The notes under the pieces are model-generated. The model saw only the letters and a list, made by a program, of their open reading frames with translations, did not search any database and was not told the DNA's origin. A program made the translations under genes and the position numbers. A stretch of 64,000 bases of DNA. Origin: a virus. The stretch spans positions 32,001 through 96,000 of the IMG/VR virus record IMGVR_UViG_3300047496_000172; one strand, 5' to 3'. Below, in pieces: positions 15,900 through 22,040 of the stretch. The first letter of the stretch is position 1; every line of letters begins with the position of its first letter.

Positions 15900-15973
15900 T
15901 GGTGCCGATAGTAAGAATCGAACTTACATCTCCATATTACGAGTATGGCCGTCTACCACTGACATATACCGGC
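15900..15973 (-). tRNA. tRNA-Thr(CGT), CCA encoded
   Basis: Cloverleaf GCCGGTA/TATCGGC; D arm TGTC/GACG; anticodon arm CCATA-CTCGTAA-TATGG; T arm GTAAG-TTCGATT-CTTAC; ACCA end. Confidence 0.93.
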
Positions 15974-16294: not shown

Positions 16295-16370
16295 TCCGCA
16301 ATTTTGTGTTAATGTTAGTTTACCATAGCAAAAAAGGTTTTACAATGCCATTTCGACGGAGAGAAATATA

Positions 16371-17159
16371 ATGTCTAAAGTGACCTGGATTCTTGAACGC
16401 GATGTTTTCGCGGAAGTTTGCTTCAATGAAATGATCGATCATTTCAAGGCGAACGATATTCCTTATCGTGTCGTCAGGATCATTCCATTTATTCATGAAA
16501 TTGAAGGAAAGGTTCCGCAGGTTTCCGATCCGGTTGTCGTCTATGGCAGCATCGGTGTGCAAACCCTGGCTCAACGCCATGGATGGGTTCCTGGCGTATG
16601 GACTAATGACAATTTCGCATCTGGTGGTTCGACCGAGATTTCTGATCTTCTGGTAAACGGTTCTTTTGAAATTATGAAGTTGAGCGAAGTCGCCGACAAG
16701 GTAATGCTCGATGAATTTTTCATCAAACCCAATAGCGACAACAAAGAATTCGCTGGAATGGTTATTACTCGCGAAGAATTTGGTGTTTGGCATGCTAAGA
16801 TGCTCGACATCAACTATTTGGAAACCGATGACTTTGATGTTATCGTGGCGCCATATCGAAAGCTTGGTTGCGAATGGCGAGTGGTCGTAGTGAATGGAAA
16901 GATCAGTTCAGCATCGATCTATCGGCAATACGGTATCGTCAAGCCAGAACGTCATATTATTCCAGAAGTGGAAAGCATTGTAATGGAAGCGCATAGCCGA
17001 TTTGTGCCCGCACCAGTATATGTAGTAGACGTAGCACAGGTCGGAGATGAATACAAAATCATCGAATATAACACCTTCAATTCAGCCGGTCTGTATGCTT
17101 GTGATGTTGGAAAGATCATCGATGACATTAACGCTTTCCTTTTAGATCAAGCTCAATGA
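16371..17159 (+). CDS. ATP-grasp domain protein (DUF4343/R2K-like)
   Basis: FIKP...K.FAG, EWRVVVVNG, YVVDVA, KIIEYN.FNSAGLY. Confidence 0.8.
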   Translation: MSKVTWILERDVFAEVCFNEMIDHFKANDIPYRVVRIIPFIHEIEGKVPQVSDPVVVYGSIGVQTLAQRHGWVPGVWTNDNFASGGSTEISDLLVNGSFEIMKLSEVADKVMLDEFFIKPNSDNKEFAGMVITREEFGVWHAKMLDINYLETDDFDVIVAPYRKLGCEWRVVVVNGKISSASIYRQYGIVKPERHIIPEVESIVMEAHSRFVPAPVYVVDVAQVGDEYKIIEYNTFNSAGLYACDVGKIIDDINAFLLDQAQ

Positions 17160-17166
17160 TCTAAAT

Positions 17167-17382
17167 ATGCTCATGATAAAGTGGTCACCATTGCTGGTTT
17201 TTGGACCTATCACCGCTTTGCTGGTGGCGATGGTGATCATTCATTGGAGCAAGAAAAATTATGGTCAAGCCATGATTTATGCCACTATACTTTCTTTTTG
17301 GGTAATTTTTGAATTGCCCTTAGTTGGATGGATGGCAATACATCTTCATCAACAATTAGCTGGTCTTTTTCATTGGAGCTAA
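17167..17382 (+). CDS. Small membrane protein
   Basis: Two hydrophobic segments. Confidence 0.5.
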   Translation: MLMIKWSPLLVFGPITALLVAMVIIHWSKKNYGQAMIYATILSFWVIFELPLVGWMAIHLHQQLAGLFHWS

Positions 17383-17383
17383 A

Positions 17384-18079
17384 TTACCAAACTTGATCCA
17401 TATACCCTTTCATGAATTTTTTAGCTGACATAGACTTTCCTTTTTCGTGATTTACAACGGTATCATCTTGAAATCTTAGCGTAAAATTTTTATCAGATCG
17501 CATTCCACTACCGACTTGGTTTTTTCTATCTTTTGCGATAGCGGAATATTTTTCTGAATTACTTCTTTCGTCGAGTGTTTTTATGATCGCTTCTTTTGCG
17601 TCTCGTAGATTAGATATTCTTTCTCTTCCTTGTCTTGCTTCTATAATACCAGTTGGTATATGAATTAATCGACAAGAGTTGGGGTGACGATTTCGATGTT
17701 GGCCGCCATTTCCGGTTCCAGAGAACCATTCCACGCGAAAATCGTCATCAGATCGTTTTGAATAAATGTCTGAAGTTGTTGTTTCAGGATTTATGACAGC
17801 ACAAGTTATAGTTGAGGAATGAACGCGTCCTCGTTTTTCAGTAGGAGAAACACGCTGGGTTCTTATTCCACCAGAACCATTATGTAAAATTTCGAGATCG
17901 GCGCCAATAATTTCGATTGCAACTTCGGCATACCCTGCATCAGATGGGCGTTCTCTGACGATGCGGGACTTTCAACCTTTACGAGTCGCCAGCTTTAAAT
18001 AAGCCTTCATCAAATCAGCACAAAACATACTCGCGTCGAGTCCGCCTTCACCTGATCGTAATTCCACAATGCGAATCAT
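17384..18079 (-). CDS. Class-1 peptide chain release factor (RF1-like, lacking domain 1) with in-frame UGA at codon 36
   Basis: Manual translation from ATG 18079 (GAAGGAG SD): MIRIVELRSGEGGLDASMF...YLKLATRKG*KSRIV...QRVSPTEKRGRVHSST...GTGNGGQHRN...GSGMRSDK; TGA at 17972-17974; same frame as track ORF 17384..17734. Confidence 0.85.
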
Positions 18080-18185
18080 AATAAAATCTCCTTCGTATTT
18101 TTATTTAGCATTATAGGTTGACTTTTGTCAAGAAATTAGTTAAAAAATAATATGACAACCTTCCGGCAAACCATGGATTTTTTAA

Positions 18186-18623
18186 ATGGACAGTAATATT
18201 ACATACGAAGAGTTTGAAGAACTCTGCCGTGAAGCTATTCGCGATAAAGAAAAAGCGTATTGGTTAGCTGAAGAAGGTAATTTGAATCGATACAATCCTA
18301 CTGTCGATCTTCAATATTATACTGAAGGTAGATGGTCTACTGGCGGCCAGGGTGGCGGTAGTTGCTGGGATGAAGGTGAATCTCATTACTACGCGTTAGA
18401 AGGTGAGCAAGAGCCAAAGGACGAATATCTATCCTTGTTTTTGTTAAAAATCGTTCCAGAATTGACTTACGCGCAATTTGTAAATCTTGAAAAATCTGAA
18501 TTTTTTGAGTATTCTACGGAATATCAAAACGAATATTACGGAAATTATACGACATATGGTATTCGTAAGTTCAACTTACGAACTCTCTATGATGTTTTAA
18601 AACAGATGTCTGTAAATGGATAG
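18186..18623 (+). CDS. Hypothetical phage protein, paralog of next gene
   Basis: MDSN.TYEEFE, W..GG..GG.CW, EYYGNYT. Confidence 0.7.
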   Translation: MDSNITYEEFEELCREAIRDKEKAYWLAEEGNLNRYNPTVDLQYYTEGRWSTGGQGGGSCWDEGESHYYALEGEQEPKDEYLSLFLLKIVPELTYAQFVNLEKSEFFEYSTEYQNEYYGNYTTYGIRKFNLRTLYDVLKQMSVNG

Positions 18624-19442: not shown

Positions 19443-20200
19443 AGTTTGATCAATCCATTTAATGTTACTATATTAGTAGCCGAAGCGGGGTCTGTCCCAA
19501 ATACTATTTGGTTATAACCACCAAACCCAAGAAATCCACTAGATTTAGCGACGCTATAATATGGTAAAAAATTAATACCATCTCCTGGCCATCCTATGTA
19601 TATATTTGTTCCATTATCATGAAGTTGATACCAAGTTGGAACATACATAAAATCGCCACCTGTTGCCAAATCATATGAATTTAGACTTGTAGGATTATCG
19701 TATTTTTTATGAACTACTCGATTGTTAGTTTGTGGGGCGATACCTTCTATTTTACCGGAAACACTGTCACACCATCCAATCATCATTAGCGGACCACCAT
19801 CACCACTGGTGCTAATAAAATTCACAAGAAAATTGACTGTATAAGGTGGAGTTGGTGCTGTCATAGCTAATAAATGTAATCCATCATTAGAATTTCCTAT
19901 TATGCTTACACCAGGAAGACCCGCAGTAGCATTTGCGGTAGATTGGTTTATCCAGCCTATATCAAAAGTAGCAAGATTAGGAACAGGAATGCCAGCAGCA
20001 ACGTTTGCTATTGCGGCATTGGTATAACTTTCAGAAGTAGCAATAGCATAAGTCACTTGAGTATTAGTATAGTTGGTTGCTGCCAAATTTATTTGATCAG
20101 GCGTGATTTTCACATTCACGCCGCCTTGGACACCAGCCAAGTATTCACCACCGCCTAGAGTTGATGCATTCGCAAATGCTGAAATTTTTGTGTTAGCCAT
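19439..20200 (-). CDS. Fibre-like virion protein with lectin-like C-domain
   Basis: MANTKISAF N-terminus; shares NYTNTQVTYAI.TSE.YTN and YSVAKSSG with 56934..58727. Confidence 0.65.
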   Translation of the reverse strand: MANTKISAFANASTLGGGEYLAGVQGGVNVKITPDQINLAATNYTNTQVTYAIATSESYTNAAIANVAAGIPVPNLATFDIGWINQSTANATAGLPGVSIIGNSNDGLHLLAMTAPTPPYTVNFLVNFISTSGDGGPLMMIGWCDSVSGKIEGIAPQTNNRVVHKKYDNPTSLNSYDLATGGDFMYVPTWYQLHDNGTNIYIGWPGDGINFLPYYSVAKSSGFLGFGGYNQIVFGTDPASATNIVTLNGLIKL

Positions 20201-20964
20201 TATGTTACCTCTAATTCAATATATCCAGAACCATCTTCAAGTTCATATTCGCCACTACCATCCTCCAATTCCATTCCAAATGATTCTAAGCTTGGAGCAA
20301 TAGGAGTCCCATACAATCCTATATTTACCTTCCTCAAAAATAAATTAACATCTGAAACGGTATTGTTGGTGACACCCAACATGTAATACGGTCCATCTTT
20401 GTCTTGACTCAATGCACTAATTGAAAAAGTTAAACTATCGACATCGATGATGGTATTCTGAGTATCTTGAATAACGGTTGAATTTCCTGCGGCCATTACT
20501 TGAACAACACCGGATTTTGTTGGTGAACTACCATCTATGTAAAAACCATGATATTCAAATTTTGCAGAAATTATATTTCCATCTAAACGAGTTGGAATGG
20601 CAAGAGTGTTACTATAATCTGAAAAAAGAATAGGACCACTATACAAACCCGGAATAACCGTAGGGACGAAGAAATCGTTTCTATTTTGATCCATATAAAA
20701 TTGATTAAATAGTTGCTGATTTACTGGACTTGCTTCGGTCAAAACTTCAATATTTTGATACGGAAAAGTCGTTCTCTGATAGTTTATATCTCCAACATTT
20801 GGAGTATGGCCTATAAACATTCTACCAGTGTCGGTCGAAAATGCAGGCTCTCCGACCGCCAAGGGTTTATTAAAAACGGGTGGAGAGGTTGAAATGGGTG
20901 AGCCAGGAAGTAAACTCTCTTTACCTCTTCTGAATTTTATTTTTCCAACCAAAATTATAGACAT
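20200..20964 (-). CDS. Virion structural protein (fibre-anchor-like family)
   Basis: KFRRG...LAVGEPAFSTDTGRMFIGH; late box 4 nt upstream. Confidence 0.7.
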   Translation of the reverse strand: MSIILVGKIKFRRGKESLLPGSPISTSPPVFNKPLAVGEPAFSTDTGRMFIGHTPNVGDINYQRTTFPYQNIEVLTEASPVNQQLFNQFYMDQNRNDFFVPTVIPGLYSGPILFSDYSNTLAIPTRLDGNIISAKFEYHGFYIDGSSPTKSGVVQVMAAGNSTVIQDTQNTIIDVDSLTFSISALSQDKDGPYYMLGVTNNTVSDVNLFLRKVNIGLYGTPIAPSLESFGMELEDGSGEYELEDGSGYIELEVT

Positions 20965-21011
20965 AGTGTATTTATGATTGTTTAAATTTTATCATTAAAT
21001 ATAGAGGTAGT

Positions 21012-22040
21012 TCACGATATTACTATTCGTCTCATATATAGACTTATGTTGTTTAAAGTTAAATTTAAGATGTTCAACATATAATATGTGCCGCCTCCAT
21101 CAGATTGAGCAGAACCTACTGAAAATTGTAAACTCGTGCTTCCATTCAATAAATTAAAGTCAGATACAGAACTTTGATCGTATTGATTGGCTAAAATTCG
21201 TAAAGTGCCATTTTCCAATGGTGAATATGTCGAGCCTATAACTTTGAAAGCATGGTATTCGAATGCGGCAGAAACATTCGCTCCATAAATTTTGGAAGGA
21301 ATAACTGGAATATCTGTTACATCGGAATATGTTATTGGGCCATTATAGTTTCCAGTTATTACAGTTGGAGGGAAAAAGGCATCTTGATTTTGATTTCTTA
21401 CGAAATGATCGAATAATTCCTTCATTCTTGGAGAAGTCTCGGTCAAAACTTCTATATTTTGATATGGAAAAACAAGACGATGATAATCTACATCGCCGGG
21501 TTTAGGGGTATGACCTATAAGGACTCGACTGGTATCCGTGGTGAAAGCCAATTCCCCGACATCCAAACTTTTTGGGAAAACTATTGGAGGAAATCCCTTT
21601 GGAACTCCTGGTAATTCTGCCTCGGTTCCTCTGCGAAATTGAGTTGATTTTACCGTAATTTGATTGGCGACGATGTTGTTTACGACTTGTGATATACCTG
21701 AACCAAAAACCGTAGAAACTCCGTGAGATGATCCTACTCCGGAATCATGAATAACAGTAGCATTAGCATCTCCTGATGCTACAGCAACACCATTACTTGT
21801 TCCATTAGCAAATTGATAGGTATTTAAAATTACATAAGCAACAACTTTTGAAATTCTTGTGAAGTCAGGTTGAAATCCGGTTGCAACATAGCCAACAGAT
21901 TTATAAACGTGAATTTGTTCGTTATTACCATCAGGCGTAGTTACGGTATACCCTACAACTTTAGGGACTGTTAAAGTATTTGATTGCGCTCCTTGGGCAG
22001 CATAACTTACTATTTTTGATGTTGAAATATAATCTACCAC
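21012..22040 (-). CDS. Virion structural protein, paralog of 20200..20964 with N-terminal extension
   Basis: QFRRG...LDVGELAFTTDTSRVLIGH...FPYQNIEVLTE. Confidence 0.7.
   Translation of the reverse strand: MVDYISTSKIVSYAAQGAQSNTLTVPKVVGYTVTTPDGNNEQIHVYKSVGYVATGFQPDFTRISKVVAYVILNTYQFANGTSNGVAVASGDANATVIHDSGVGSSHGVSTVFGSGISQVVNNIVANQITVKSTQFRRGTEAELPGVPKGFPPIVFPKSLDVGELAFTTDTSRVLIGHTPKPGDVDYHRLVFPYQNIEVLTETSPRMKELFDHFVRNQNQDAFFPPTVITGNYNGPITYSDVTDIPVIPSKIYGANVSAAFEYHAFKVIGSTYSPLENGTLRILANQYDQSSVSDFNLLNGSTSLQFSVGSAQSDGGGTYYMLNILNLTLNNISLYMRRIVIS

Follow-up and report, generated by a model that had tools for sequence, protein, structure and literature searches.

How is a phage gene for a translation release factor expressed when its own reading frame is cut early by a stop codon? 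This question is raised by a locus in a viral genome from a moss metagenome, analysed here in a window of 64,000 nucleotides that comprises bases 32001–96000 of a 106,578-bp IMG/VR record (IMGVR_UViG_3300047496_000172; GC content 38%, estimated completeness 18%). To our knowledge, control of release factor synthesis by recoding is textbook matter for bacterial RF2, and in viruses has been described only for the eRF1-type factor of mimivirus. On the minus strand of the window, positions 17384–18079 form a single frame of 231 codons closed by a TAA (17384–17386), and its sole interruption is a TGA at codon 36 (17972–17974), in the context GGU UGA A. The ATG start codon (18077–18079) is preceded at a distance of 8 nt by a Shine-Dalgarno sequence, GAAGGAG (18088–18094, minus strand). 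The listing of open reading frames shows just the 116-residue tail of this gene (17384–17734); an initial annotation had extended the tail to the ATG, described both halves as intact and proposed that the full-length protein is made by reading through the UGA. A divergent gene begins 106 nt upstream of the release factor gene, a gene for an R2K-type ATP-grasp protein lies directly downstream on the opposite strand, and a tRNA-Thr(CGU) gene (15900–15973, minus strand) is found 1.4 kb downstream. The promoter scan reported no minus-strand promoter-like site upstream of the release factor gene. A TTGACA at 18126–18131 is followed by a TATAAT only 10 nt on or by a TAAATA 18 nt on, which is a weak arrangement.

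The two halves indeed belong to one protein. In the read-through product, Pfam places the PCRF domain (PF03462) at residues 4–92 (E = 9e-21), spanning the TGA, and the RF-1/GGQ domain (PF00472) at residues 110–208 (E = 4e-13); even the 35 codons upstream of the TGA match PCRF when taken alone (E = 2.6e-6). The best NCBIfam match is the prfA model TIGR00019 with 161.4 bits, short of the cutoff of 423, and since it starts only at profile position 115 (positions 115–342 of 361), the protein begins at the first strand of domain 2 and lacks domain 1, leaving domains 2–4; before its start lie only the 106 intergenic nucleotides that separate it from the divergent gene. BLASTP against the RF1 of Thalassospira (L213) gives 38% identity from RF1 residue 120 onward and pairs the TGA with the Trp within NRGW|KFE, in agreement with the earlier claim that the UGA stands in place of a conserved Trp; against RF2 the identity is 29%, and the corresponding residue is a Tyr. 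An AlphaFold2 model of the 231-residue product (pLDDT 90.2) finds its best structural matches in ribosome-bound RF1 chains (TM 0.90, about 31% identity), with RF2 a slightly poorer match. The codons of the catalytic GGQ, G125-G126-Q127, lie at 17699–17707 on the minus strand, and their columns are invariant in alignment A1.

The missing domain 1 had also been noted in the initial annotation, where it was likened to PrfH (RF-H), a class-I release factor paralog that lacks this domain as well. The absence was borne out, and the resemblance ends there. PrfH differs in its recognition region and has RtcB as its partner in the RtcB2-PrfH ribosome-repair module. The match to the PrfH model TIGR03072 reaches 39.6 bits (cutoff 166.65) and covers the GGQ domain only, the fold fits PrfH with a TM of 0.68 as opposed to 0.90 for RF1, and no RtcB was detected among the 10 neighbouring genes scanned with Pfam. 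The gene is not a PrfH. That it codes for a shortened, domain-1-less RF1-type class-I release factor, predicted to be functional, is well supported by these comparisons.

Whether the internal stop is damage or design can be judged from the relatives, which comprise 581 proteins from a word-indexed protein search and, from DNA searches, 507 viral loci, at least 577 from metagenomes and 82 from species-representative genomes; a megablast of the sequence against the phage collection gave no match. In the viral set, which was built from the best 80 of the 507 viral loci together with five further loci, codon 36 is TGA in all 75 distinct genes and TGG, TAA or TAG in none. The metagenome set has TGA there in 72 of 73 distinct genes, and the exception (L268), in which codon 36 is TGG, has a new TGA-C in frame four codons further along, so that no phage-clade DNA locus was seen without an in-frame TGA. 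Pooled, the distinct genes with a stop at codon 36 all use TGA (142/142; TAA and TAG never) at protein identities of 44–62%, which chance could hardly produce; this count, like those of the +4 base and the terminal stop given below, is drawn from genes that are not phylogenetically independent. The remaining Trp codons of the family genes, about two per gene, are TGG. Purifying selection is equally strong before and after the stop, with pairwise dN/dS values of 0.124 for codons 1–35 and 0.122 for codon 37 to the end, and synonymous differences in the same comparisons are near saturation (pS ~0.77). Both outcomes are those expected if, as had been proposed, an intact release factor gene needs readthrough. 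The terminal stop of the family genes is also biased, being TAA in 122 of 139 (88%, again not phylogenetically independent) versus 52% in flanking ORFs, and terminal TGA is depleted, with 13 cases observed where 39.6 would be expected from neighbouring ORFs.

A lone in-frame stop usually indicates a pseudogene, and full-length database proteins with a Trp at position 36 do exist, which could suggest that the TGA is an assembly error, a recent nonsense mutation, a selenocysteine codon or a Trp codon in the genetic code of the phage or its host. However, a Logan assembly of a moss metagenome run (depth 8) is identical over 17300–18200, TGA included, which rules out an assembly error; the run is probably the source sample itself, so that the independence of this check is limited to the assembler. 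A recent nonsense mutation is ruled out by the 142 genes with TGA and by the dN/dS of about 0.12 on both sides, and no homolog was encountered that combines TGG with a decaying downstream part. The W-bearing proteins, for their part, all lie on contigs of at most 2.5 kb, and gene callers can switch to code 4 on short contigs. On long contigs (up to 1.1 Mb), by contrast, only C-terminal fragments of the release factor had been called; standard gene callers split or truncate the gene in every long contig examined, which amounts to a systematic misannotation.

The phage likewise offers no sign of an altered code. With code 11, ORFs chosen greedily cover 90.5% of the sequence, versus 89.4% with TGA as a sense codon, and the 158 ORFs of the phage end in TAA 95 times, in TGA 47 times and in TAG 16 times (60% TAA, about 30% TGA). 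In two complete relatives with terminal repeats, G001 (578,292 bp) and G002 (335,552 bp), TGA ends 365 of 740 and 195 of 481 ORFs, respectively. A code with TGA as Trp (translation table 4) is thus ruled out, as TGA is a normal stop in all three genomes and reading it as sense brings no gain in coverage. As to the hosts, close copies of the gene with the same TGA occur in prophage-like settings on contigs whose assigned taxa are Alphaproteobacteria that use code 11 (Thalassospira, with T. xianhensis MCCC 1A02616 among them, Kiloniella, Jiella, Pararhizobium, Sphingomonas), and one viral relative is classed as a provirus. Selenocysteine is ruled out as well, since the position is a Trp in RF1 and a Tyr in RF2 and the only tRNA(UCA) found in the relatives measures 72 nt, tRNA-Sec being much longer. 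Altogether, we give next to no credence to an artefact, to decay or to a deviant code. The stop is kept in all 142 related genes and hence appears to be a built-in control point, not damage, and it is well supported that the gene is intact and needs its UGA decoded.

Ribosomes could in principle resume translation behind the stop, but a restart codon is not conserved across the family: in the window the reading frame runs for 80 codons past the UGA before an ATG, GTG or TTG is reached, and the median distance in the family is 43 codons. Reinitiation was rejected on this ground. UGA is the one stop codon that can be misread by Trp-tRNA(CCA) (PMC7918605), and together with the Trp that RF1 has at this position this leads us to expect Trp at codon 36.

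The surroundings of the stop are compatible with inefficient termination. The codon before the UGA is always a Gly codon in the family, mostly GGC, and the base after it (+4) is A in 98 of 142 genes, which are not phylogenetically independent; C and G account for 22 genes each, and U never occurs. The missing U is no by-product of the amino acids encoded there: Leu directly after the stop is written CTN in 21 of 21 cases, versus 40% TTR elsewhere in the same genes, and Ser is written AGT in three of three, so that a +4 U appears to be avoided even at the synonymous level. A U in this position forms the strongest bacterial termination context and acts as a termination enhancer (PMC5289835). Besides the bias towards GGC before and the lack of U after the UGA, no freeze of synonymous sites was found around it.

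A candidate hairpin (17934–17967, minus strand) starts 4 nt 3' of the UGA, with arms at 17960–17967 and 17934–17941. In an alignment of 19 sequences of the window's subclade (A2), 77% of the cells are paired versus 30–51% when the partner is slid, five pairs show double changes, and the covariation of 0.292 compares with 0.172 in shuffled alignments, none of 500 shuffles reaching as high. The window's own copy has one mismatch (7/8 pairs), and its folding energy is ordinary (z +0.59). Family-wide, folding is more favourable in the 75 nt that follow the UGA than in a control segment (mean z -1.84 versus -0.59). A consensus RNA structure common to the whole family was not found with alifold, and the hairpin is specific to the subclade.

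A wider view of the family shows that the recoding device itself can change. A tree was built from the C-terminal 193 columns and rooted with the RF2 of Thalassospira, and the RF1 of the same genus was included as another canonical reference. It separates the short factors from both RF1 and RF2 as a single clade (97% support) that falls into three groups. The first is the phage clade (87 rows, support 100), which has TGA at codon 36 in every member. The second, mainly myxobacterial (47 rows; Nannocystis, Minicystis, Kofleriaceae and others), has the N-terminal 35 codons in another frame, and the junction consists of GGAGG or GGGGG, 3–6 nt and then CTT TGA C or CTT TAG C, a +1 frameshift cassette of the prfB type; four of its members are uninterrupted. 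The third is small and carries either an in-frame GGC TGA or a CTT TGA C cassette about 11 codons further downstream, and some of its members sit in dense tRNA arrays; in Thiobacillus denitrificans DSM 12475, for instance, 26 tRNA genes are packed into 6.6 kb. Among the 51 bacterial relatives of the latter two groups with frameshift cassettes, the stop is TGA in 39, TAG in 12 and TAA in none. Judged by the tree, there have been repeated switches of stop codon and of device, but the need for recoding at a stop persists. The analogy to prfB, drawn in the initial annotation from the window alone, is borne out by the true prfB-type cassette that occupies this site in bacterial relatives.

What might such a gate be for? 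The reading we favour, and hold to be reasonably probable, is that programmed UGA-to-Trp readthrough ties the synthesis of a backup RF1-type factor to the efficiency of termination at UGA, that is, to RF2 activity. Most ribosomes would stop at codon 36 through the action of host RF2 and release a 35-residue peptide, and a fraction would decode the UGA as Trp, most likely with near-cognate Trp-tRNA(CCA); the weak termination context without a +4 U and the downstream hairpin may help. Since termination competes with decoding at the UGA, the yield of full-length factor should rise when RF2-dependent termination is slow relative to decoding. In this way the UGA could act as a sensor of the termination capacity of the infected cell, much as the prfB frameshift site does, which according to the "communicating vessels" model senses the total demand for termination (PMC7530605). 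We infer Trp insertion, the sensing of RF2, and the activity and specificity of the factor; sensing is suggested by the fact that the stop is invariant, that it was swapped with a device responsive to release factors and that a new TGA is found in the gene with TGG.

Fixed low readthrough would also explain the conservation of the UGA. The UGA would then serve to hold a potentially toxic, RF3-independent factor down to a few percent of the amount that the strong Shine-Dalgarno sequence would yield, and nothing would be sensed. Such constant attenuation is in line with the strength of this ribosome binding site and with the toxicity of unregulated release factor overexpression (PMC12421855, PMC7530605), and the conservation data fit it equally well. 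However, a weak ribosome binding site or promoter could give a low output without freezing one codon in 142 genes, and the relatives have exchanged readthrough for a prfB-type cassette whose only known role is control in response to release factors. The new TGA close to the TGG at codon 36 of L268 also speaks for more than a fixed brake, and we regard simple attenuation as unlikely.

The tRNA genes of these phages bring up a further explanation, in which the UGA would be read by a phage-encoded opal suppressor tRNA(UCA) or by a Hirsh-like tRNA-Trp with A24 in the D-arm and the gate would open once the tRNA array is expressed. In many of the phage relatives the release factor gene lies inside or beside tRNA arrays; tRNA genes occur in 65 of 165 flank sets of related loci, tRNA-Trp lies less than 2 kb away in eight, and 6 of 11 phage tRNA-Trp genes have U11-A24. 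Moreover, the 335-kb relative G002 encodes the 72-nt tRNA(UCA) 1.7 kb from its release factor gene, and a comparable idea was put forward for the release factor of Mimivirus (PMC3521657). The opal-suppressor-like tRNA points, for some relatives, to a gate controlled by the phage instead of a sensor of RF2. Yet this tRNA(UCA) was seen in only 1 of the 165 flank sets and is absent from G001, the closest complete relative (578 kb). The available 106 kb of the phage studied here, about 18% of its genome, contain genes for tRNA-Asp, tRNA-Gly and tRNA-Thr only and none for a UGA-reading tRNA(UCA), and a general opal suppressor would read through the 30–50% of phage genes that end in TGA. We consider phage-timed opening of the gate quite unlikely.

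If the gate responds to RF2, the next question is whether the factor can act back on it. The codons for S78-P79-T80, at the position of the "tripeptide anticodon" (17840–17848, minus strand), align with P-V-T of RF1 and S-P-Y of RF2. The initial annotation had stressed this hybrid SPT motif; it is present in the window, where it departs from the PxT pattern of RF1, but the family consensus is PPT, which follows that pattern. PPT is found in 60 of the 77 database proteins whose loop could be read, in 73 of 75 viral genes and in 64 of 69 metagenome genes, and SPT or SxT occurs in about 10% of the family members, scattered over separate branches. SPT is thus a real variant but a minority one, and not the design of the family. 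The window further has Ser instead of Thr in the His-Thr-Ser element, and the tip of the decoding helix carries a family-specific, invariant Glu (xEGG) where RF1 has GTGG. All recognisable decoding determinants, for the second as for the third base, look RF1-like (Gln75, Thr80 and His-Thr/Ser-Ser). Ito et al. (2000) reportedly found that a Ser at the first position of the tripeptide relaxes the discrimination of the second base. The broadened stop specificity and the rescue of stalled ribosomes late in infection that the initial annotation raised would be speculative roles.

These features bear on a direct form of autoregulation, in which the factor would itself read the UGA and end its own synthesis as RF2 does, especially in the Ser-first SPT variant. 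SPT shares its first two residues with the SPF or SPY of RF2, the invariant Glu marks a departure from RF1 in the decoding helix, and the myxobacterial relatives use UGA or UAG in otherwise similar genes, which would fit a factor that reads both. About 80% of the members are PPT, however, with the RF1-type Gln and Thr at the base-reading positions, and PPT members keep the UGA as strictly as SPT members do; in addition, release factors able to recognise UAG as well as UGA are toxic and tend to cause termination at UGG (PMC7530605). Direct self-termination is thus very improbable in our view. Given its RF1-like decoding residues, the factor probably cannot read the UGA that gates it, and any feedback would have to be indirect. 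In the RF2-sensing reading that we prefer, the factor would supply termination at UAA, which makes up 60% of the stops of this phage, and at UAG, RF2 would thereby be freed for UGA, and the loop would be closed in this roundabout way.

More broadly, and as a tentative proposal that we think possible but would not yet call probable, the short RF1-type factors could constitute a third lineage among the bacterial class-I release factors, a mobile one that occurs in large phages by the hundreds, in elements with tRNA arrays and on the chromosomes of myxobacteria, with a synthesis that is almost always wired through recoding to termination efficiency. In phages they might provide a virus-run homeostat that senses failing host RF2 and takes over termination at UAA and UAG, and possibly at UGA in the Ser-first variants. 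Evolution has exchanged readthrough and +1 frameshifting at one spot. The family offers a natural system for the study of bacterial UGA readthrough signals, of a release factor without domain 1 on the ribosome and of termination in large tRNA-bearing phages. A literature search found no published description of recoding in the short RF1-type family, and the occurrence of RF-1 genes within tRNA arrays has been noted without mention of recoding (PMC5966550).

Among known systems, the closest parallel is the prfB gene. Its in-frame stop at codon 26, in domain 1, is bypassed by a programmed +1 frameshift at an SD-like element followed by CUU UGA C. In both cases a class-I release factor gene is cut early by an in-frame UGA and the synthesis of the full-length protein competes with termination, and the bacterial relatives of the short factors even carry the literal cassette of GGAGG, 3–6 nt and CTT TGA C. 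The window differs from prfB in that the frame does not change and both a CUU slippery codon and an SD-like stimulator are missing, the readthrough being placed at GGU UGA A, in domain 2 (near RF1 residue 140), and in that the factor is of the RF1 type and probably does not read its gating codon. A survey of 12,753 genomes from 2025 showed programmed frameshifting for prfB, not prfA, concluded that RF1 genes are not regulated by recoding and never found TAG in the prfB motif (PMC12421855). In contrast, an RF1-type factor can apparently be gated by a stop codon, with a gate that is invariant in more than 100 diverged phage genes, and 12 of the 51 cassettes of the short-factor family use TAG. 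Canonical RF1 itself shares with the short factor the PCRF and RF-1 domains, the GGQ, the Gln and Thr decoding residues, 38% sequence identity and the fold (TM 0.90), but possesses a domain 1 of about 115 residues that the short factor lacks, has P[AV]T in place of PPT or SPT, does not carry the invariant Glu of xEGG and lies outside the clade of the short factors.

Two viral systems also link a release factor gene to the reading of UGA. In phages that have recoded TGA (code 4), RF1 is encoded beside tRNA genes and written in the standard code, and TGA is recoded in many late genes (Borges et al., 10.1101/2021.08.26.457843). The phage studied here resembles them in encoding an RF1-type factor near tRNA genes, linked to a UGA probably read as Trp, but TGA is its normal stop and the in-frame TGA is confined to the release factor gene. 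The release factor gene of Mimivirus and Megavirus (R726/mg280) requires both readthrough of a UGA-C and a frameshift. For the readthrough, Jeudy et al. (2012; PMC3521657) proposed that Trp is inserted and that the virus's own Hirsh-like tRNA-Trp does the decoding. Both this gene and that of the window code for a virus-encoded release factor that depends on the reading of an internal UGA in a weak context. The Mimivirus protein, however, is of the eRF1 type with a eukaryotic/archaeal fold, belongs to a giant virus of amoebae and needs a frameshift in addition, whereas the factor described here is a bacterial RF1-type protein of a phage whose synthesis would call for just one recoding event, placed where a Trp codon is conserved.

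Within the phage clade, whose release factor genes share the interruption at codon 36, only one locus (L268) has TGG at this codon. The gene is otherwise intact, and an in-frame TGA-C lies in the same frame four codons past codon 36 (L268:786-815). In Myxococcota and other bacterial genomes (loci L105-L166), the short RF1-type genes require a +1 frameshift at a GGAGG-N3-6-CTT-TGA-C site, examples of which are found at L145 (2880-3000), L128 and L149. The stop of this cassette is not fixed, as 12 of the 51 cassettes in bacterial relatives carry CTT-TAG-C and none carries TAA, and about eight changes between TGA and TAG can be placed along the tree of the short release factor family. Two of the genes are located amid very dense tRNA arrays, with 26 tRNA genes in about 6.6 kb in Thiobacillus denitrificans DSM 12475 (L116) and 22 in about 6.6 kb in a Chloroflexota MAG (L152). 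In both, the frameshift cassette is shifted about 11 codons downstream.

Some of the related phages encode suppressor-like tRNAs. The complete 335-kb relative G002, a standard-code phage, carries an opal-suppressor-like tRNA(UCA) (contig 145422-145493) 1.7 kb from its release factor gene, an amber-suppressor-like tRNA(CUA) (254867-254942) and a tmRNA (126887-127266). G001, the relative of 578 kb, encodes tRNA(CUA) twice, yet 162 of its ORFs terminate in TAG. Genes for tRNA-Trp lie near the release factor gene in G002 and at the loci L002, L044, L073, L083 and L085. Among 11 phage tRNA-Trp(CCA) genes, six pair U11 with A24 in the D stem, as does E. coli tRNA-Trp bearing the Hirsh UGA-suppressor mutation. 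The pairing in the phage genes may be ordinary variation. The same Hirsh-like state has been pointed out for the tRNA-Trp of Mimivirus (PMC3521657).

In the window, the release factor gene adjoins an R2K-clade ATP-grasp gene on the plus strand (16371-17159; Pfam R2K_3 at 8.7e-16). Since the R2K clade is a group of RimK-like peptide ligases, this neighbour possibly also acts in translation. A 157-aa ORF overlapping it on the opposite, minus strand (16320-16793) is probably spurious. Two adjacent minus-strand ORFs (20200-22040) match the major tropism determinant N-terminal domain Mtd_N, both weakly and below the cutoff (E-values 2.5e-4 and 3.1e-5), and may be receptor-binding or tail-fibre proteins.

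At the tip of the decoding helix, the protein alignment of the short release factor family reveals an invariant glutamate within an xEGG motif (residue 11 of the window protein). The glutamate is a change specific to the family and adjoins the residues reading the first stop-codon base, whereas RF1 has GTGG and RF2 has GAGG or GSGG at the same tip.
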